A stretch of 34,383 nucleotides of DNA from a virus: UHGV virus genome UHGV-0341269. One strand, given 5' to 3'. The notes under the pieces are model-generated. The model did no database searches. It worked only from the letters and a program-made list of their open reading frames with translations, and was not told the origin of the DNA. Position numbers and translations under genes: made by a program. Below are positions 1,561 to 32,193 of this stretch, one piece after another. Numbering within the stretch: position 1 is the first letter of the stretch; each line of letters opens with the position of its first letter.

Positions 1561-2874
1561 TTAAGCCTCCCTGTAGGTAGTGGCGGCAGCATCCCATTTC
1601 AGGTCAATGTAACCAATCTCCCCGAAACGGTTCTTGCCGACGATGATTTTCGCCTCTTCCGGATCTGCATTTTTGTCCATGACGTATGGCCTGTAGAGCA
1701 ATAATATCTGGTCGGCATCCTGTTCGATGGAGCCGGAGTCGCGCAGGTCGGACACACGGGGAACCCCGGCTTCCTTCCCGGCGCGTTTCTCCGCTTCCCG
1801 GTTCAACTGGGCCAGCACGATTACCGGAATATTCAGCTCCTTGGCCAGGGCCTTGAGGCCGGCGGAAATCTCTGACACTTCCCGTTCCCGGGAAGCGCCG
1901 CGGCTGGAAGGATTGGCAAGCTGCAGGTAGTCCACGCCGATGCACCTCACGCCGTGGTCCGCCACCATGCGCCGGGCGGTTGCCTGGATCTGGTCAATCC
2001 TCAAGGCTCCCCGGTCGTCCACGAAGAAGGGCAGGCTCTTCACCTTGCGAACCGCATTGGTGAAAGCCTCCTGCTGCCACTTGGTCAGCTTGATGCCTCG
2101 GCGCAGATTGGCCGCATTGATTTTGGACATGCCAAAAAGCGTACGTTCAAGTAACTGCTCCTTGGACATTTCCAGAGAGAACATGCCTACTGGCACCCCT
2201 TCGGCAGCCAGATTGTACAGAATATTGGTCATGAAGGAAGTCTTCCCCACGGCGGGCCGGGCTCCGATGACGATCATGGAAGTCTTCTGCAGGCCGTCCA
2301 GCATCCTGTCCAGGGAGGGATACCCGGTAGGAAGCCCCTTGGTCTGTCCTGGATTCTTGATGCGGAACTCCAACCCTTCCACCACCTTCTGTGTGCCATC
2401 AGCCATGCGCGCCACTTGGGCCACTCCGTAAGTTTCCCGCAAGGAGGACATCACCTTTTCGGCTTCCGCCAGAACTTCGTCTTTGGTCAGGGTTGGGTTT
2501 TGAAGATTTTCCAGCCCGGAAATGAACAGGGATTCCACATCCCGCTTCTTCTTGGATTCCGCCAGAATCTTCACGGAGGGCTCGAACTGGAAATGGTAGG
2601 CAAAGCTGGTTGAAAGCTCGACAAGCCCGACATGTCCCCCTACGGATTCCAAGTCTCCGGAAGAGTCCAGGTGCTGGATCAGGTCGGTAATGTTGAGCTT
2701 CTCCGGCGTCTTGGACAAGGCTTCAAAGGCAGCCCATATTTTCTGGTGGGCAGGAAGGGCAAAGTGGCTCCTTCCAATGCCTTGTTCGACGAGAGCGGCC
2801 ACCTTGTCGGCTCCGTCAATGCAGTTGCCAAGAACGGTTTTCTCGGCGTTGAGTTGTGTTTCTGTAAGTTGCAT
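1561..2874 (-). CDS. dnaB: Replicative DNA helicase, DnaB family
   Basis: Walker A GARPAVGKTSF, plus the DnaB-type C-terminal RecA-like domain (GVDYLQL, LKALAKELNIPVIVLAQLNR, SDLRDSGSIEQDADQI). Confidence 0.9.
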   Translation of the reverse strand: MQLTETQLNAEKTVLGNCIDGADKVAALVEQGIGRSHFALPAHQKIWAAFEALSKTPEKLNITDLIQHLDSSGDLESVGGHVGLVELSTSFAYHFQFEPSVKILAESKKKRDVESLFISGLENLQNPTLTKDEVLAEAEKVMSSLRETYGVAQVARMADGTQKVVEGLEFRIKNPGQTKGLPTGYPSLDRMLDGLQKTSMIVIGARPAVGKTSFMTNILYNLAAEGVPVGMFSLEMSKEQLLERTLFGMSKINAANLRRGIKLTKWQQEAFTNAVRKVKSLPFFVDDRGALRIDQIQATARRMVADHGVRCIGVDYLQLANPSSRGASREREVSEISAGLKALAKELNIPVIVLAQLNREAEKRAGKEAGVPRVSDLRDSGSIEQDADQILLLYRPYVMDKNADPEEAKIIVGKNRFGEIGYIDLKWDAAATTYREA

Positions 2875-2890
2875 AAATTGTTATTGAGGG

Positions 2891-3706
2891 TTAAATGTTT
2901 TTTCTAAATCTTGGATCGAAGGGGTCTCTTTCCACTCCTGGTGATTGCCCTTTTGTTTCGAGGTTCCTTGCCCAACGCTGGGCGTAACTCCAAGCATTGC
3001 TTTTCCAGTTTGAAATAGGCACGCCTGACCTGTCCACCCAACCCAAACCGTCCCGATCCGCCCAGTATTGCTGGGCGCATTCTGGAATCTCTCTGGGGGG
3101 TAGGAGCAAGCAGCCTCTTCCAACCTCGTTTTTCAGGTGGGCTTCCACTTCTCCCGGTGAAGAAGGAAGAGAAGAACGAGAAGGAGCAGTTGCCGAACGC
3201 GAGCCGTTAGGCGAAGCTTCCTTCGTCTCCGTCTCCGATTTCGTATACGTATCCGTCTTCGTCTCCGTCTCCGTATAAGCGGTGGATTTCCGTGACTCAC
3301 CGTTATTCACCGTGGATTCCCGTGAACTACCGTGACTCACTGTATTACACGGTGAATCACCGTCAGGAAGCGGGAACTTGGGCTTACTCTGTCTGCGCTG
3401 CCCGAAATTGATGATCTGCACGTAATCCTTGCCCCCGACACAGTATGCCCTTACAAGCCCGGCTTCCTCCGTTTCGTGAAGGCAGTCTTGAATGTCCTGG
3501 TTACTGATTTTGTCAAGGTGCAGGGGGAATAAGCGAGTCCTCAATACCGTAGGGCGAGCGTCAAACAGGCCGTAGTCATCCGCCACCAACAGGAGCCGAT
3601 GGAAGAAGCATTCGGTACGCCATGAAAGTGCCGCGACCTTTTCTGAATCAAGGAACCCCTCTCTAATCATTCGTGATGTTGCCATACCCTTTAAGCATAA
3701 TTTCAA
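2891..3706 (-). CDS. Putative phage replication initiation / replisome-organiser protein, with a TETE-repeat linker
   Basis: Lies immediately upstream of dnaB in the same operon; the N-terminal domain resembles phage replisome organisers; the central low-complexity linker is encoded by an iteron-like DNA repeat array. Confidence 0.45.
   Translation of the reverse strand: MKLCLKGMATSRMIREGFLDSEKVAALSWRTECFFHRLLLVADDYGLFDARPTVLRTRLFPLHLDKISNQDIQDCLHETEEAGLVRAYCVGGKDYVQIINFGQRRQSKPKFPLPDGDSPCNTVSHGSSRESTVNNGESRKSTAYTETETKTDTYTKSETETKEASPNGSRSATAPSRSSLPSSPGEVEAHLKNEVGRGCLLLPPREIPECAQQYWADRDGLGWVDRSGVPISNWKSNAWSYAQRWARNLETKGQSPGVERDPFDPRFRKNI
3281..3360. repeat. Eight consecutive 10-bp iteron-like repeats (consensus CGTGANTCAC), flanked upstream by two copies of TCGTCTCCGTCTCCG (3224-3238, 3259-3273)
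   Basis: GGTGGATTTC/CGTGACTCAC/CGTTATTCAC/CGTGGATTCC/CGTGAACTAC/CGTGACTCAC/TGTATTACAC/GGTGAATCAC read directly; the period is one helical turn; they lie inside the initiator CDS, as in lambda O/ori. Confidence 0.55.
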
Positions 3707-8972: not shown

Positions 8973-9322
8973 TGTTTTGATTGGTTGGAGAGAAAATCTC
9001 TGACTTCGCGCATGTTGAAGCGTGCTTCGCCCTTCCTGCCCCGTTGATTGTTCATAGGCGTCATCTTGGTAATTTTCCCAAGCCTCACCCCTTCCGACAA
9101 ATAAGGAGTAATACCACTGACGGAGTAGTGGAACCGTTCGGCGCAGTCTTTTGCGCTTCCGAATTCATCTACCGGAACAAAATTATTCATTCCGACGCTT
9201 GACGCTTCAGCCGAGGAAGGAACCGGAGTGTCCGCCAATTCCCTCAGCACTCCGGACAGCACTTCCAAGGCATCCGCAAGGCTGGCTATCGTTTTTTCGT
9301 TCCCGTTCATGGCTTTGGTCAA
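8969..9322 (-). CDS. Hypothetical protein with a C-terminal HTH_17/excisionase-like DNA-binding domain
   Basis: AERFHYSVSGITPYLSEGVRLGKITKM…ARFNMREVRDFL follows the AlpA/Xis-type HTH pattern. Confidence 0.4.
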   Translation of the reverse strand: MTKAMNGNEKTIASLADALEVLSGVLRELADTPVPSSAEASSVGMNNFVPVDEFGSAKDCAERFHYSVSGITPYLSEGVRLGKITKMTPMNNQRGRKGEARFNMREVRDFLSNQSKQ

Positions 9323-9507
9323 AAGTCGTCGTTGTGTCCGTCAGGGTTGTCCGTCGTGGCATGGTCCCGTTCGTACCGCACCAGGGCGTTTTCGAGGGCC
9401 GCGGCTGCGGTTTCGTGTTCGTTCATCAGCCGTTCGGCATCTGCGTGACTCACAGCTACATCATCCACACGGATGCAGCGGTCTTCTTCGTCGTATTCGA
9501 TGCTCAT
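9319..9507 (-). CDS. Hypothetical acidic small protein
   Basis: Short ORF tightly packed between two HTH_17-like genes. Confidence 0.3.
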   Translation of the reverse strand: MSIEYDEEDRCIRVDDVAVSHADAERLMNEHETAAAALENALVRYERDHATTDNPDGHNDDF

Positions 9508-9719
9508 TTTCGCCCTCCTTTCTTCAAAAATTCTTGAGATCTTTTCTCAAGCCACGCCGTTACTTCGTCAAGTTTGTAACGCGGGTGTGTTCCTTTTCCT
9601 CCCAGCCCGCCGGAAAAATAAACACGGGGACAACCTTCCTTATTAAGTCGAACTAGAGAACCCTTGCTAATGTTCAGGGTCTTGCGTAGTTCCTCGCTGG
9701 TGATGTATGGTGTATTCAT
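9504..9719 (-). CDS. Excisionase/AlpA-like HTH_17 DNA-binding protein
   Basis: YITSEELRKTLNISKGSLVRLNKEGCPRVYFSGG…RYKLDEVTAWL is the classic HTH_17 pattern. Confidence 0.6.
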   Translation of the reverse strand: MNTPYITSEELRKTLNISKGSLVRLNKEGCPRVYFSGGLGGKGTHPRYKLDEVTAWLEKRSQEFLKKGGRK

Positions 9720-9760
9720 ATGTTTTTTCTTGTTTGTCTTTGATGTAAACGCTATTGCCT

Positions 9761-9967
9761 CTACTTCCGTTTAAGCCTATTCTCTGTATCCATGATTACT
9801 TTAATTTCTGTTGATTGTTCTTCTTCGATAGCCAATAGACCGTTTTTAATTATTACTTTCGGGTATTTCTTCTTCACGGTTAATCTTTTGTTATCCTTGT
9901 AAAAACCATGATAAGGTTCATAACGAATGATAGAGAGGTCGTTATGAACGTCCAAGCTACCAAGCAT
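9761..9967 (-). CDS. Hypothetical protein in an AT-rich island
   Basis: ORF in a ~270-bp low-GC segment (9720-9990). Confidence 0.3.
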   Translation of the reverse strand: MLGSLDVHNDLSIIRYEPYHGFYKDNKRLTVKKKYPKVIIKNGLLAIEEEQSTEIKVIMDTENRLKRK

Positions 9968-9980
9968 TGCCAGTCAGTCA

Positions 9981-10256
9981 TCATTTAGCCTCCTTTCGTG
10001 TTATTCTCGCGGTGCCGGATATAAAGAGTTCCTCACCGTCCGGTTTAGTGACCAGATAGCCATAAATATCCTTTTTATAATCACTTATTGCCTTCACGCA
10101 CTCAGGGTCACTAGTGGAAAAAGAAATATCGAGAAGACCTGGCTGTTCGATCTTAATAATCCATTCCCGTTCCCCTTTCCAAATCCAGTCATAAGGGCGT
10201 GGGTTACAGGCGCACAGAACAAGCCCGGACAAAACGAGGGCAGCCAGCGCTTTCAC
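9981..10256 (-). CDS. Small secreted/lipoprotein (moron candidate)
   Basis: N-terminal signal peptide MKALAALVLSGLVLCAC with Cys residues in a lipobox-like position. Confidence 0.45.
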   Translation of the reverse strand: MKALAALVLSGLVLCACNPRPYDWIWKGEREWIIKIEQPGLLDISFSTSDPECVKAISDYKKDIYGYLVTKPDGEELFISGTARITRKEAK

Positions 10257-11044
10257 TTCTTCACCTCCTTCTGCTCGGTTTTATTCCCCGTCATCCGCTT
10301 CAACAGCCATACTTGACCTTTAGGCGTCAGATACGGGGTTGCTTTGCTTTCCGCTCTTCCGCTCGCGTGCTGGATAATCCGGTAACTGACCCGAAAACGA
10401 CCGGCTTCCACATGTTCCTGGGACGGCACGTTGCGGCGGTTTCCTGTCTTCCCAAGGATGCCTTCATTGCGCAGCAGCTCAAAAAGCCGGTTCTGTCCGA
10501 TTTCCCGTCCGTTCTGTGCCAGCACCTTGGCGAATTCTCCAATCAGCATGCAGCCGGCGGAGACTTCCACGCTCTTTCCAAATTCTGTGTAGGGAGCGTC
10601 CTCTTCTATCTTGGCTTCAAGAGCTTTTCTTTTGTCCTGCTCATCTTTGAGCGTCTGAAATACCTTGATGGCGTTCTCAGGCTTGGAAATCAACTCAAGA
10701 AGTTTTTCGCCCGTCGCATAGATGCCGTGCTTGCGTATTGTCGGTAGTACTTCTTCAAAGACCCAAGCCTCGAATCTCTTCGCTGATTCCAGTTTGGAAC
10801 CACAGATCAAACGCATCATGTCGGGTTCGTTGATGATGCGAATCTCCTGTACTCCTCCGGGAGTTTGAAGGGGGTAGCGTTTCACGACCCCCTTACAATG
10901 TCGGTTCATGGCATCAGTTTCATTGGCGTAACCAAGAGCGGCACACACGTCTTTTCCGACGAACCATGGCTCTTCGTCAAAGGTGACTGTCCTGACGGAA
11001 CAGCCCAAAGCGGCGTTGTTGAATGGTACTATGGTGTTGTTCAT
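10253..11044 (-). CDS. Phage antirepressor (Bro-N domain with a KilA-C/ORF6C-like C-terminal domain)
   Basis: The N-terminal FVGKDVCAALGYANETDAMNRHCKGV block is the Bro-N signature. Confidence 0.65.
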   Translation of the reverse strand: MNNTIVPFNNAALGCSVRTVTFDEEPWFVGKDVCAALGYANETDAMNRHCKGVVKRYPLQTPGGVQEIRIINEPDMMRLICGSKLESAKRFEAWVFEEVLPTIRKHGIYATGEKLLELISKPENAIKVFQTLKDEQDKRKALEAKIEEDAPYTEFGKSVEVSAGCMLIGEFAKVLAQNGREIGQNRLFELLRNEGILGKTGNRRNVPSQEHVEAGRFRVSYRIIQHASGRAESKATPYLTPKGQVWLLKRMTGNKTEQKEVKK

Positions 11045-11049
11045 GTTGT

Positions 11050-11286
11050 TTATCGGTTGGCGGTTTCGGTTTTCTTTATAGGTGGTTCACCACCTATAGG
11101 TAAAAAAACTCCCTTCTTTTTGATTCTCTTTTTTATAGGTGGTTCACCACCCGCGAGTAAAAAAACTACTTGCCCGGAAACTGATCTTTGTTCTTTCCGC
11201 GCAATCAATTTTATTTGCTCAAATAAGTCAATAGGGAGGTTAATTGTTATTTGCTTTTTCTCGTATTTCTCGGGCGATGTTTTCAT
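11050..11286 (-). CDS. Ribbon-helix-helix (Arc/CopG-like) DNA-binding protein with a repetitive GGEPPIKK tail
   Basis: ITINLPIDLFEQIKLIARKEQRSVSGQVVFLL has the RHH beta-alpha-alpha pattern; the tail repeats are encoded by the operator-like DNA repeats. Confidence 0.5.
   Translation of the reverse strand: MKTSPEKYEKKQITINLPIDLFEQIKLIARKEQRSVSGQVVFLLAGGEPPIKKRIKKKGVFLPIGGEPPIKKTETANR
11077..11098. promoter_or_regulatory. Operator-like inverted repeat TATAGGTGG-TTCA-CCACCTATA upstream of the antirepressor gene (partial second copy at 11134-11151)
   Basis: 9-bp perfect arms; part of a ~40-bp direct repeat (11076-11114 and 11128-11168) embedded in the 3' end of the RHH gene. Confidence 0.5.
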
Positions 11287-11671
11287 AATCTTCGGGTGTA
11301 AGGATTACGTTTTGAGTTTGTTGAACTAAATAAGCGGTAATGATTTCAGTCATCGTCATATTCAGTTCTTTTGCTCTCTTTTGAAATTTTCGGAAGAGGA
11401 CGATGGGGATCCATACTGAAATCTGTTTTTTGTCTATCTTCCGTTGACTTGGCATGCGCTCAACATAATCGGTGGTTAACCACCAGTCAACACTATTTTT
11501 CATCTTTTTTACATTTTTTTCATCCAGCATCATCCCGGATCTCCTTCCTAATTTTTTTTCATCATTAGAATTAAGCGCGTAATGTAGATAAGTAGACACA
11601 TCTACATTGATATGCACACCTAAGGAATCTTTGATCGCCGAACGAGGAAACGAGGAGATTGACGAGTTCAT
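11240..11671 (-). CDS. Ribbon-helix-helix domain protein (the N-terminal extent is uncertain)
   Basis: QISVWIPIVLFRKFQKRAKELNMTMTEIITAYL follows the RHH pattern; the gene is AT-rich. Confidence 0.4.
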   Translation of the reverse strand: MNSSISSFPRSAIKDSLGVHINVDVSTYLHYALNSNDEKKLGRRSGMMLDEKNVKKMKNSVDWWLTTDYVERMPSQRKIDKKQISVWIPIVLFRKFQKRAKELNMTMTEIITAYLVQQTQNVILTPEDYENIAREIREKANNN

Positions 11672-11814
11672 TTCTTCTTCTCATCCTTTTGAGTGATGTT
11701 TCGCAAGATCCTCTTTGTGGTTCGCCGGTAACCCTCCACAATGCCGAGACCGAAACAAGTAGCCCCGAAAAGCACAGCCAGCAAGAAAAACACAAGCATC
11801 ACGTTACCCGACAT
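11668..11814 (-). CDS. 48-aa small membrane protein (MSGNVMLVFFLLAVLFGATCFGLGIVEGY…)
   Basis: Hand-translated; one TM helix; its stop TGA overlaps the ATG of the downstream RHH gene (ATGA). It is not in the ORF track because it is shorter than 60 aa. Confidence 0.3.
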   Translation of the reverse strand: MSGNVMLVFFLLAVLFGATCFGLGIVEGYRRTTKRILRNITQKDEKKK

Positions 11815-11888
11815 TGACGTAACCCTTTCTTGCTGAAAATTTATCTCCTAATAAACTAATATTTAGTGCGTTATAATGCGGGGGGGGT

Positions 11889-11896
11889 AATATTTC
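11889..11896. repeat. G8 homopolymer tract directly 3' of a perfect TATAAT (11881-11886), in the regulatory region
   Basis: TATAATGCGGGGGGGGTAAT read directly. Confidence 0.6.
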
Positions 11897-11990
11897 CTGT
11901 TTTTTCATGAGATTTGATGCCTTGTGGCTCCGGTAAGACGTTGTGTCATCGATTATCCGTTCACGTGATGACAAATTCCTCCCGAGAGGA

Positions 11991-13178
11991 TTACAAAACA
12001 ATCTTGCTGGATATTTCCTCTATTGCATGCACGACATCCTGCGAGTCGGGCCGGAAATATACCCGTTCAATCTCTTCAGAGTCATGCCCTACAATAAAAC
12101 GGCACAAGTCCGCCGGCACCCCTGCCAACCGCAAAATCGTCACCGCGGTCGCCCTCAGGCTGTGAAAGCTTTTTTCAGACAGCACGCGCTTGTCTCCCTT
12201 CCCTTTCCTTTCCCCGGCAGAAATGATGCCGTGTTTTTTCAGAAGTCCGGTAAACTCAAGAGAGAGCTTGCTGGACTTCCCGCCGCCTTGTGCGTGTTTC
12301 ATGGCGGCCAAAGGGAACACAAATTCATTGATGGAATATCTCTCCCTCTCTTCCAAAATCTCTTTCAGCGGTCGGATGATGGGCTTGTTCATGCGCCGCT
12401 TGGTTTTTTGTGAGGTCATGGCAATCAGTCCACCGTCAAGGTTGACCTGCTCCCATCTGAGGGTGGCAATATCGCCCAAACGCTGGCCGCCCGTATAAAG
12501 GCATACCCGTATCATGTCCGGCCATTCACCCGGTAAAATTTCTACCAGCCTCTTGACTTCTTCCACGGTGAACGCGTTGCGCTCCTGTTTGTCGTCCTGC
12601 TTTTTTTTCTTGTCCAGCCTGGCTCCCCTGAAAGGATTGGAGATGATCAATTCTTTTTCGACAGCCTGATTGAACGCGCAGGAAAGAGATTCGAGATACC
12701 TTGATACTGTACCGGATGACACGCGCTCCATTTCTGTCTCCGCAAACCGTCTCACGGTGTCTTTGTTGATGGAGGCTATGGCTTGCCCTCCATCATTCCC
12801 CAGGAACAAAATAAACTGCTTGATGGCCTTCCCGTCTCTTTCGTGTGCCTGAATCTTGCCGGATCGTGATTGCAGCCATTCATGGAGATACGCTCCAACG
12901 CTCACGGCCTTTCTGCCAAGGCTGGCCGCCTGAACATCTCCGCCAGCGATAGCTTTGAGCCGCTGCGAGTCAACAAAGCCGGTCTTGTGTCCATGCTCAA
13001 GCTCTTCGGCAATAAGGCGAGCCCTGGCCTCGTTTTGCGCTATGACCGCTCTTTTGTTTGCCCCGGGTGGAATAACCTTTGGCACCACGTCAATACGAGT
13101 GGTTTTCCTGACCTCTTTGCCGTCCAGCGTCTTGAAGACGGCTACCCATTTATTGCTTCTTTTGATAATCCCCGCCAT
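11991..13178 (-). CDS. int: Tyrosine site-specific integrase
   Basis: C-terminal catalytic region HSLRAT … VGHDSEEIERVYF (H-x-x-R and the Tyr nucleophile); N-terminal arm-binding-like domain; the first ATG is 13178 (MAGIIKRSNKW), and the ORF track begins at TTG 13190. Confidence 0.85.
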   Translation of the reverse strand: MAGIIKRSNKWVAVFKTLDGKEVRKTTRIDVVPKVIPPGANKRAVIAQNEARARLIAEELEHGHKTGFVDSQRLKAIAGGDVQAASLGRKAVSVGAYLHEWLQSRSGKIQAHERDGKAIKQFILFLGNDGGQAIASINKDTVRRFAETEMERVSSGTVSRYLESLSCAFNQAVEKELIISNPFRGARLDKKKKQDDKQERNAFTVEEVKRLVEILPGEWPDMIRVCLYTGGQRLGDIATLRWEQVNLDGGLIAMTSQKTKRRMNKPIIRPLKEILEERERYSINEFVFPLAAMKHAQGGGKSSKLSLEFTGLLKKHGIISAGERKGKGDKRVLSEKSFHSLRATAVTILRLAGVPADLCRFIVGHDSEEIERVYFRPDSQDVVHAIEEISSKIVL

Positions 13179-13180
13179 AG

Positions 13181-13386
13181 AACTGTACAATTTTTAAAAC
13201 TTGTACAGCCACTTGTACAGCAAGCATTCCGTTTTCTGTGGTAATGTAGCGTAATAAAAAAGCACGGAAACCTTGTAAAATCAGGCTTTCCGTGCTCTAG
13301 CGTAATAAAAAAGTGGCGGAGCGGGAGGGATTATATTTATTGATTATAAATATACTTATGAATATAATGTTCAGCTTTTTGTACAG
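13181..13386. other. Candidate attP region: four TTGTACAG repeats (13183-13190 inverted, 13201-13208, 13213-13220, 13379-13386), a 16-bp direct repeat AGCGTAATAAAAAAG ×2 (13248-13262, 13299-13313), and an AT-rich inverted repeat TATATTTAT-N5-ATAAATATA (13332-13354)
   Basis: Repeats read directly; placement next to int is typical for attP, with arm-type sites flanking a core. Confidence 0.4.
13253..13296 (-). terminator. Rho-independent terminator (minus strand): 10-bp stem AGCACGGAAA/TTTCCGTGCT, 16-nt loop, then a U-run
   Basis: Perfect stem 13261-13270 / 13287-13296; the T-run on the minus strand corresponds to plus 13253-13260 AATAAAAA; it lies downstream of the tail/GT operon. Confidence 0.6.
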
Positions 13387-13406
13387 TTCCTTTCCTACCC
13401 TCAGGG

Positions 13407-13432
13407 TCATCTTGTTGATATCAACAAGATGA
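13407..13432. promoter_or_regulatory. 26-bp perfect palindrome TCATCTTGTTGATATCAACAAGATGA abutting the stop of gene 13433-14158
   Basis: Reverse-complement identity verified by hand; the half-site CTTGTTGA also occurs in promoter units A and B (CTTGTTGAC). Confidence 0.5.
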
Positions 13433-14158
13433 TCAATTTTCTTTCTGGTGAAAACGGCAGCGGAATAAGGCATCCATGACGCGGGCCCGGTTTGCTTTTG
13501 GAATATGGGGAGGACGGGGGCTTCCCACGGTTACAACGTCAAACCCAACATATTTTTCCGGGGCGACCGAAATGCTGAACCAGTTCCATGCCGACCAGCG
13601 GCCAGCCCTGTTTTGGGGCGTCCAGGGGGGGATAATTCTCCCCTTGCCGACCCCAAAAAGTTCAATGACTGTGTGCCCGATGGTAAGATCCTCCGGAGCG
13701 TTGTCCGGCAGATCTGCTTGCATCAGCACTTCCGCGGCTCGTTTGGCGGCCAGTCCGGTCATGGCATAACACAGACCGTAGAATTGCCGGCTATCTGCTC
13801 CCGAGGCGCACCAATGCGCCCCCGTTTCAGACATGTCCCTGATCCATGCTCCGTTGAGCAGCGCCGTATCCGAATCGATTTTGACGACGATGTCATCGTC
13901 CGCCGCTTCGCTGGACAGCATGGAGATAATGCCCTGGACGCATTCCGGGCCGCGCAGGTTGCCGTGGCGCGGGAAGCTGGTTTGACGATACCGCGCTCCG
14001 GCTTCCAGAAGCGCCTTTCTGGTGCGTTCCGGTACTGGGTCGGCCTCATCGTCCGCCACGGTAATGACGGCATCAGGGAGGGCTGCCAAGGCGCACCGGA
14101 CGCAGGCTTGCGCCTCATCAGCGTCTCCGGCATAGGTGAATAGATAGATTCTGATCAT
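13433..14158 (-). CDS. Putative GT-A fold (family-2-like) glycosyltransferase; moron between the tail genes and int
   Basis: IRIYLFTYAGD…VITVADDEAD, then ~55 aa later IVVKIDSDT (DxD-like), then GLCYAMTGLAAKRAAEV; this matches GT2 motif spacing. Confidence 0.4.
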   Translation of the reverse strand: MIRIYLFTYAGDADEAQACVRCALAALPDAVITVADDEADPVPERTRKALLEAGARYRQTSFPRHGNLRGPECVQGIISMLSSEAADDDIVVKIDSDTALLNGAWIRDMSETGAHWCASGADSRQFYGLCYAMTGLAAKRAAEVLMQADLPDNAPEDLTIGHTVIELFGVGKGRIIPPWTPQNRAGRWSAWNWFSISVAPEKYVGFDVVTVGSPRPPHIPKANRARVMDALFRCRFHQKEN

Positions 14159-31950: not shown

Positions 31951-32193
31951 CGCTCGCCGGGCCAGGTCCGTTTCAAGCTCCTTGATTCTGGTCTCCTGTT
32001 GGGCTACCAGCTTCGGGGCGTTGAGGATATTTCGGACGGCGTTAAACCTGCGGCTTAATGATGGAAAGGGATTGGTTGCAGGGGGAGGAGTTGGACCTCC
32101 GACACGGGGACAGGAACCCCGTATGATACCGTTTCACTACCCTGCGATTGAATACAAATCAACACATATAGATATGTTGATATATTGTCAACC

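Follow-up and report, generated by a model that had tools for sequence, protein, structure and literature searches.

A putative ribbon-helix-helix control cassette with operators in promoter and coding sequence in temperate phages of Akkermansiaceae

The window analyzed here, a stretch of 34,383 nucleotides from the virus genome UHGV-0341269, contains one end of an Akkermansia prophage, whose genes run on the minus strand from the integrase toward coordinate 1. Within it lie two overlapping genes for small ribbon-helix-helix (RHH) proteins, RHH-A and RHH-B, together with three copies of a short palindrome (dyads O1, O2 and O3). These elements are best interpreted as an early-region control cassette, probably an immunity switch, of temperate Akkermansiaceae phages, in which a repressible promoter for a leaderless RHH message is combined with two further operators downstream, an interpretation to which we assign a probability of roughly 0.65. 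It builds on what is seen directly in the DNA, namely the anatomy of the cassette, its conservation, the change of its operators between phages, the RHH assignment and the variable cargo behind it. A sequence-only reading of the region had reported four minus-strand open reading frames (ORFs) of 48, 143, 78 and 263 amino acids (aa), which were recovered at 11668-11814, 11240-11671, 11050-11286 and 10253-11044, respectively, and had likened their order to the immI region of phage P22. As far as literature searches show, the cassette represents a variant of RHH-based phage regulation not previously described; these searches returned no account of it, nor of lysogeny control in Akkermansia phages.

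Three dyads and a predicted internal promoter

Two of the dyads share the sequence GGTGGTTCACCACC (11081-11094 and 11138-11151, 57 bp apart), and each is contained in one copy of a 39-nt direct repeat with 85% identity (11072-11110 and 11129-11167, likewise 57 bp apart) and followed on the plus strand by GTAAAAAAACT, with its run of seven A residues. On the coding strand they read GGTGGTGAACCACC. O2 (11138-11151) encodes GGEPP at the end of helix B of RHH-B, while O3 (11081-11094), with the same sequence 57 bp downstream, lies 37-50 bp before the ATG of the next gene. The sequence-only reading had recognized both copies, which are real, and had described a 22-bp palindrome at 11077-11098; this palindrome exists in the window, but only its 14-bp core is conserved, the TATA arms varying in relatives. 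Its placement of the repeats 35-110 bp upstream of the antirepressor start agrees with the 37-107 bp found upstream of the ATG at 11044. What it had missed was a third copy, O1, a perfect 14-bp palindrome (GGTGGTTAACCACC, 11471-11484), and the promoter that surrounds it. A search with GGTGGTTNACCACC, allowing up to two mismatches, gave six strand matches (three sites) versus 0.85 expected, a number reached in none of 100 shuffles, and the dyad occurs only these three times in the 34-kb window.

The positions of the dyads relative to the RHH-A ATG (-29, +304 and +361) are fixed in eight close lineages; O1 is found at -29 in all close loci and O2 at +304 in every close locus and in the more distant L024. 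The 14-bp cores are identical, with differing flanks, in 10 IMG/VR loci, a complete phage, two Akkermansia genome contigs and further metagenome contigs, a scan of species-representative genomes having contributed just two Akkermansia loci. Among the eight close lineages 42% of positions vary overall, while the dyads and two T7 tracts on the minus strand, each 7 nt upstream of its dyad (11159-11165 before O2 and 11102-11108 before O3), are invariant, synonymous positions included. From O2 to the T-tract of O3 none of the 28 intervening positions is constant, whichever codon position it occupies, and the 15 nt at O3 (GGTGGTGAACCACCT) form the longest invariant island beyond the RHH cores. In the close relative L026, O2 has become GGTGGTGCACCACC, which changes a residue from E to A and makes the palindrome perfect. 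T-rich tracts also precede O3 where it is non-coding, in L024 (T7), L037 (T9), L045 and L046. This pattern of variation indicates that the palindromes are selected as DNA.

O1 directly follows the -35 hexamer TTGACT (11485-11490, minus strand) of a predicted promoter, P_O1, and thus lies within the spacer of TTGACT-N17-TATGTT, whose -10 hexamer TATGTT (11462-11467) ends 6 nt ahead of an ATG at 11455. TTGACN or TTTACA occupies the -35 place in 17 of 18 tabulated loci, the exception being L045 (TTGCGA), and in L026 five of six -35 positions are kept although the encoded residues change from VDW to LYR. The -10 element takes 11 different forms among 15 tabulated loci, which agree in having A as the second and T as the sixth base, and the residues encoded across it are not conserved. 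From the -10 element to the ATG the gap is 6 nt in 16 of the 17 lineages with this geometry (including L044 and L046) and 8 nt in L043, and no Shine-Dalgarno (SD) sequence is visible ahead of the RHH-A ATG in these 17 lineages. Cappable-seq of A. muciniphila has revealed -35 and TATAAT-like promoter elements and leaderless starts in about 10% of cases (PMC4782308). The cassette has the arrangement expected of a leaderless gene, with a -10 element about 6-7 nt before the start codon and no SD sequence; RHH-A is thus probably translated from an mRNA whose 5' end is the A of the ATG at 11455 or a base beside it.

The layout extends well beyond the close relatives. It is kept in about 17 lineages (Akkermansiaceae prophages and related metagenome contigs), with dyad sequences that differ. 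DNA was fetched for ten distant lineages with short RHH-A homologues and for L024, and nine of the ten, all except L045, have TTGACN, a 17-18 nt spacer that opens with a dyad, a -10 element with A2 and T6, a gap of 6 nt (8 nt in L043) and an ATG, followed in nearly all by a second RHH gene from +169. The dyad at the place of O1 is a different one in these distant relatives, and two further copies of a phage's own dyad, 27-71 bp apart, were found in L024 and in seven of the ten; the contig of L040 ends within the first downstream copy. Dyads at O1 and at O2-O3 read, respectively, TGCGGTTATACGCA and GGCGGTGAACCGCC in L024, GGTGATATATCACC and GGTGGTATATCACC in L039, and GGTGTGATCACACC and GGTGTACTCACACC in L043; L044 has GGTGTAAAACACC at all three sites, and L046 has GGTGTGTTCACACC at both O1 and O3, with GGTGTGAACACACC at O2. 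The dyads of L035, L037 and L045 are likewise alike within each phage. As judged from these alignments, the dyads change together between phages and are alike within one, which is the pattern expected of the operators of a co-evolving regulator, and the layout is much older than the phage group of the window. Their operator-like behavior is thus supported by their status as invariant islands, by their joint change between phages and by the location of one of them in a promoter spacer. The only genes always linked to the dyad sites are the two RHH genes.

Several other roles for these sequences were considered. An inverted repeat spotted by eye at about 11585-11610 (ATGTAGAT-N10-ATCTACAT) lacks conservation. 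O2 and O3 were rejected as intrinsic terminators, as the sense-strand T-tract precedes the hairpin and the other strand has an A-tract after it, and a role of the dyads in excision or as att sites is unlikely, given that they are at least 1.7 kb from the integrase-side prophage end. Folding of the minus-strand RNA of 11040-11175 showed long-range pairing of O2 with O3 (-37.1 kcal/mol, z = -4.0), as is expected of repeated palindromes, a pairing that may nonetheless be functional.

The two ribbon-helix-helix proteins

The conserved product of the first gene is a 71-aa core, RHH-A (MPSQRKIDKKQISVWIPIVLF..., 11240-11455, minus strand), which forms the C-terminal part of the 143-aa ORF. The remaining 72 codons (11456-11671) constitute an N-terminal extension that is specific to this phage group and overlaps the promoter and O1, and the ATG of the long ORF overlaps the stop codon of the 48-aa peptide gene (ATGA). 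M73 of the 143-aa ORF is invariant and coincides with a sharp break in conservation, the ratio of nonsynonymous to synonymous substitution (dN/dS) being 0.00-0.17 downstream of it versus 0.31-0.77 upstream. A profile search with the 143-aa ORF recovered 186 related clusters, the few with a source name being from Akkermansia or Akkermansiaceae, and many distant homologues are proteins of 68-72 aa whose first residue aligns with M73 (MPNQR...). The extension evolves fast, is modeled by AlphaFold2 (AF2) with low confidence and is absent in distant relatives, where in-frame stops occur 1-23 codons upstream (seven tabulated lineages). On this comparative evidence the 72-codon extension is outside the ancestral protein, and these results revise where the gene of the 143-aa ORF is likely to start. 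The 71-aa protein is predicted to be the ancestral product and to be still made here from the internal promoter. The extension was also considered as non-coding DNA, an option rejected for this phage group: in nine loci its frame continues for 63-116 codons with no stops, as against 1-11 stops in each of the other five frames. Because the frame is free of stops in these nine loci and its ATG overlaps the peptide stop, this phage group probably makes the 143-aa form too, the extension being a lineage-specific addition that overlies the promoter.

RHH-A was assigned to the ribbon-helix-helix (MetJ/Arc) superfamily on the strength of profile comparisons and a structural model. The window's 143-aa ORF has no Pfam match, that to Arc included, and one tested homologue also has none of its own; the family comprises about 186 clusters. 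A search of the PDB with the family profile ranked SvtR first (3.8e-4), followed by HP0222, ORF56, MazE7, CopG, Arc and Mnt; the first two alignments had given no match when searched against PDB sequences. Weak matches to Pfam RHH_1 were obtained with 10 of 25 family members (best 2.9e-6), a PHROG Arc-like repressor was matched at 6.8e-4, and hhalign aligned RHH-A with RHH-B at 86% probability. The AF2 model has the strand-helix-helix topology of the superfamily (strand 81-89, helices 90-103 and 107-120, and an extra helix 126-141), with a predicted local distance difference test score of 72-85; Foldseek with the model of all 143 aa found nothing significant, the best hit being a chain of the F-plasmid relaxosome with an E-value of about 1. 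SvtR (protein 56B of Sulfolobus virus SIRV1, PDB 2kel), the best solved-structure match of the RHH-A profile, is likewise a small viral RHH protein, but it comes from an archaeal virus and the similarity is remote and limited to the RHH core. We know of no operator layout that it shares with the cassette.

An RHH-A homologue is also carried by a second widespread Akkermansia prophage type, the P0072 cluster (718 contigs). At NCBI it appears as proteins of 72 aa and 63 aa, the shorter of which starts downstream of the likely leaderless ATG, and start sites may be miscalled systematically in this family.

RHH-B (78 aa, 11050-11286, minus strand) consists of an RHH core at about residues 10-45 and a tail. 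Its membership of the superfamily follows from a match of residues 13-44 to Pfam RHH_5 (27.3 bits versus a cut-off of 26, 3e-6), whereas the match to Pfam Arc is far below threshold (E = 0.19, 12.1 bits versus 20.4). The claim that the region encodes two RHH proteins was therefore sound, with the restriction that the RHH part of the 143-aa ORF is its C-terminal 71 aa only. RHH-B overlaps RHH-A; of the 11 lineages in which it was recognized, 10 have its start at +169 from the RHH-A ATG. Its tail varies, in contrast to the conserved core; the AF2 model is poor, with a disordered tail, and some close homologues have only 61 aa, one repeat unit having been lost.

The residues that follow helix B change with the dyad, being GGEPP in the window and GGISP, GVLPP, GVKHQ, GVYTA or GVNTP elsewhere. 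Every one of the nine lineages with O2 has this dyad within the RHH-B ORF, which bears out the earlier suggestion that operator and coding information overlap, while in six of these (L024, L037, L039, L044, L045 and L046) O3 follows the RHH-B stop codon. Because of these two counts, the overlap at O2 is, at the level of sequence comparison, real and conserved and the reading through O3 incidental. A repeated GGEPPIKK tail had been proposed as a feature of the protein; the 78-aa ORF does have GGEPP at two places, both encoded by the repeats, but no constraint at the protein level could be detected. Since all 28 inter-operator positions vary and the ORF stops before the last operator in six lineages, the tail would be a translated operator plus an unconstrained spacer. 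Peptides such as GGEPP, GVLPP and GVKHQ would then be examples of protein sequence dictated by a predicted DNA-binding site, which advises caution in reading such tails as functional peptides. In a decayed copy of the cassette (L009, 4001-4642) RHH-B has a frameshift after O2 and runs into what is left of the Bro-N/KilAC gene (...QTPGGVQEIRVVN...), and O3 is missing.

As to which protein binds the dyads, the beta-strand of RHH-A reads QISVW where the dyad contains GGYGGY and [RK]LN[IV]W where it contains GGTGTAC (L035 and L043), and the RHH-B sequences of L035 and L043 differ despite the shared RHH-A strand and dyad type. Because its strand tracks the dyad type better than that of RHH-B does, RHH-A may tentatively be regarded as the candidate binder.

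Proposed mechanism, competing explanations and known systems

In the proposed mechanism, a sigma-70-type promoter with O1 in its spacer would give rise to a leaderless mRNA encoding the 71-aa RHH-A and then the overlapping RHH-B. O1, O2 and O3 would all be bound by an RHH protein, for which RHH-A, acting as a dimer of dimers, is the likeliest candidate; binding at O1 would shut off the promoter of RHH-A itself, and binding at O2 and O3 would either strengthen repression at O1 by looping or act as a roadblock to polymerase before the early genes. Dimers of the RHH superfamily place a two-stranded sheet in the major groove and recognize repeated half-sites; of this, the dyads and their joint change between phages are the part observed in the sequences. 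It is common for an RHH protein to occupy short repeats in the form of two dimers that cooperate, and to repress its own promoter, as exemplified by Reg576 (PMC6294495). The early genes probably depend on read-through, because inspection of the close loci revealed no conserved -10 element near O2 or O3. The T-tracts upstream of O2 and O3, present even where these are non-coding, would suit the release of transcripts at a roadblock, which is conjecture. Because the dyad sequence differs between phage lineages, it would also set immunity specificity. Here we infer protein binding, the identity of the binding protein, the transcription start, leaderless translation and the role of O2 and O3.

Certain observations weigh against this mechanism. 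For the phage of the window, the short leaderless form is extrapolated from relatives, and L045, one of these, has instead an SD sequence in a leader of 27 nt; the open upstream frame in nine close loci is translationally coupled to the peptide gene and probably places the promoter inside the 143-aa form. L041 and L042 have neither O2 nor O3. The assignment of the binder depends on a weak correlation, and in L024 the RHH-A strand stays the same despite a different dyad. A palindrome that changes symmetrically is also compatible with a hairpin stem. Finally, stable lysogeny is not explained by negative autoregulation alone, and the gating step is conjecture.

A bolder version of the mechanism is a lysis-lysogeny switch with one promoter and one direction and no CI/Cro pair, in which RHH-A on O2 and O3 would stop polymerase inside the 3' end of RHH-B, with read-through when the repressor falls. 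The lysogen's transcript would carry RHH-A and neither a complete RHH-B nor the lytic genes, and a fall in repressor would allow RHH-B to be completed, as a lytic-phase paralogue, and the early genes to be turned on. This version, which fits because O2 is upstream of the RHH-B stop codon in nine of nine lineages having O2, is offered as a speculation that we think unlikely to be correct.

Among the alternatives to an immunity switch, the one that survives best would have the cassette act solely as an early-operon autoregulator of the Cro or Arc type, with lysogeny maintained by another factor. RHH-A is indeed the first gene of the early operon, and where a CI-type gene would be expected, L037 has a divergent leftward operon opposite RHH-A that encodes proteins of 149, 67 and 362 aa (the largest with DUF6804); but the leftward proteins have no match to a DNA-binding domain, and the window's phage group has no divergent gene. 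The earlier remark that the phage lacks an obvious CI agrees with our scan of early-region ORFs in the window and the related phage, some small ORFs excepted, in which no CI-like helix-turn-helix (HTH), HTH_3 or S24 protein was matched. The only other DNA-binding candidate of the early region is a 71-aa HTH_17-like protein (9504-9719, minus strand; Pfam 1.6e-4, below the cut-off; PHROG excisionase/regulator 3.8e-4), which may be an excisionase. On balance an autoregulator of this restricted kind is unlikely, though it deserves to be taken seriously.

It is rather improbable that O2 and O3 overlap a separate early promoter, such that a maintenance promoter at O1 would be paired with a repressed lytic promoter. 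Inspection of the window allows TTTACT-18-TATAAA and TTTACC-18-TATAAA to be drawn around O2 and O3, and the place just upstream of the first early gene is suitable, but the promoter scan reported none there, the candidate -10 element after O3 is not conserved (TATAAA, TGTAAA, TTTTAA, TTTTGA, TAATCT, TTGTGA and AAACAC), and in L037 O3 ends 13 nt before the next ATG.

The likeness to P22 immI, in which RHH repressors exist to control an antirepressor that inactivates the main repressor for induction, must be judged against the gene behind O3. In the window this gene (10253-11044, minus strand) encodes a 263-aa protein with Bro-N (2e-22, 80 bits) and ANT/KilAC (3.7e-27, 95.2 bits) domains, both above the Pfam cut-offs, and a match to PHROG 130 (9.4e-86), annotated as anti-repressor. 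As the first gene after O3 it would be co-regulated with the cassette, and it has two RHH genes ahead of it, comparable to arc ahead of ant in P22. Its antirepressor activity is an annotation by homology only, and to our knowledge most Bro-N/KilAC proteins have no demonstrated activity of this kind. The sequence-only reading had made the antirepressor the regulated target of the module, a view not upheld by the relatives: a Bro-N/KilAC gene stands behind the cassette in 4 of 13 close loci (the window, L001, L026 and, after SieB, L003), and none adjoins it in the distant relatives examined. The slot is occupied by a reverse-strand SieB gene in Akkermansia phage DTMo-2021a, L003 and L007, by a lipoprotein gene in L004-L006 and by other genes in L002 and L008, proteins of 90 or 157 aa being among the occupants. 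The C-terminus of the Bro-N/KilAC protein (...TEQKEVKK) recurs as the end of RHH-B in L004-L006 and appears to mark a recombination or swap junction. By this comparison the slot behind O3 is a cargo hot spot, and Bro-N/KilAC would be one of several interchangeable cargo genes, under cassette control by position only; the loci compared show the antirepressor beside the repressors to be, in all appearance, a chance neighborhood.

In P22 immI, mnt is divergent, the Pant and Pmnt promoters share an operator, and arc is the first gene of the transcript that it represses. The cassette resembles it in having small RHH repressors, short operators that overlap the promoter, an RHH gene first in the transcript and, in the window, ant downstream. 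In contrast, it has no divergent mnt-type gene and no shared divergent promoters, its operators number three, of which two are found 333 and 390 bp farther downstream within the next gene, its mRNA is probably leaderless, its ant is optional and of the Bro-N/KilAC type, its proteins fall below the Pfam Arc threshold, and no partner such as CI or C2 was found among the ORFs scanned. Because the genes are co-directional, the Arc match is below threshold and ant is not a constant target, the sequences indicate that the cassette is not homologous to P22 immI, and a module that exists to control the antirepressor is a quite improbable explanation.

It is hardly credible that the T7 tract and palindrome act in RNA, by a -1 frameshift that truncates RHH-B or another hairpin effect on the mRNA, for although U_UUU_UUA is in the RHH-B frame at both O2 and O3 with a 6-nt spacer and a 5-bp hairpin, hairpins of -10 to -12.7 kcal/mol are predicted in addition to the O2-O3 pairing, and symmetric substitutions preserve a stem too, no extended product is possible because the -1 frame meets a TGA within the palindrome, T-tract and dyad persist where O3 follows the stop codon (L024, L037, L045 and L046), O1 has no T-tract and would be upstream of the predicted start, positions 6 and 9, unpaired in the 4-nt loop, are conserved like the stem, and Rfam has no match within 9000-13500.

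The separate features of the preferred immunity-switch cassette have precedents in other systems. The lac operator O2, which is situated within lacZ 401 bp past the main operator, aids repression by looping, and lambda cI is expressed from PRM as an autoregulated message without a leader. Both systems are controlled by unrelated HTH proteins, whereas the cassette joins the two features in one small unidirectional RHH unit. Reg576 of plasmid p576 represses its own and other promoters from operators, each a pair of short repeats bound cooperatively by two dimers (PMC6294495), and it resembles the cassette, in which binding is predicted, as an RHH autoregulator. It differs in governing a plasmid establishment regulon of four separate promoters through direct heptamer repeats, with neither downstream operators in coding sequence nor a leaderless start (PMC6294495). 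Akkermansia is a much-studied gut bacterium, and the analysis provides base-level predictions for a promoter, a start codon, three operators and two regulators; natural operator variants should define immunity groups, and the repressor-operator parts could serve as genetic tools in Akkermansia.

The slot and the prophage end

The relatives of the window's Bro-N/KilAC protein comprise 1874 phage records, all of less than 60% identity. In DTMo-2021a (L011, CP084202.1) the SieB superinfection-exclusion gene (2395-2880, minus strand; Pfam 1.5e-19) directly follows RHH-B and is shadowed by a spurious 169-aa forward ORF. In L037 the first gene after O3 (2897-3097) encodes a third RHH protein, with weak FitA-like and RHH_5 matches.

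DTMo-2021a, whose record is unannotated, is a complete related phage with nearly all genes in one direction; the region 9900-12000 of the window matches it at 91.7% identity over 58% of its length. Downstream phage genes include those for RecT, a YqaJ-type exonuclease, Dam and a DnaB-type helicase. A tyrosine integrase gene (11991-13190, minus strand; Pfam Phage_integrase 1.2e-12) marks the prophage end, in the same direction as the cassette, and the same gene starts DTMo-2021a.

Between the integrase and the cassette lies the gene for the 48-aa peptide (11668-11814, minus strand), which has one hydrophobic stretch and a basic tail and by inspection appears membrane-spanning; it has no Pfam or PHROG match. 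The gene is kept in L001-L007, L011, L012 and L026 and is absent in L008, L009, L013 and the distant relatives. A toxin-antitoxin pairing of the hydrophobic peptide with an RHH protein was rejected, since many relatives keep the cassette without the peptide gene. In L008, L009 and L013 that gene is replaced by (A)ATCTAACA, repeated directly three times at a distance of about 250-330 nt upstream from the RHH-A ATG. Between the integrase and peptide genes a poly-C tract (11880-11887, minus strand) is situated just upstream of GCATTATAAC; it has 8 residues in the window, 12 in DTMo-2021a, 11 in L012 and at least 13 in L026, and two contigs break there. It could be a length-variable homopolymer that affects expression of the peptide gene and of the long form of the 143-aa ORF.

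Beyond about 13.4 kb the window appears to be host sequence. A strong hairpin (13405-13434, in the region 13300-13434) is located near the likely prophage end, and what appears to be the host flank contains a tRNA-Arg(CCT) gene (32073-32146) about 19 kb away from the integrase.

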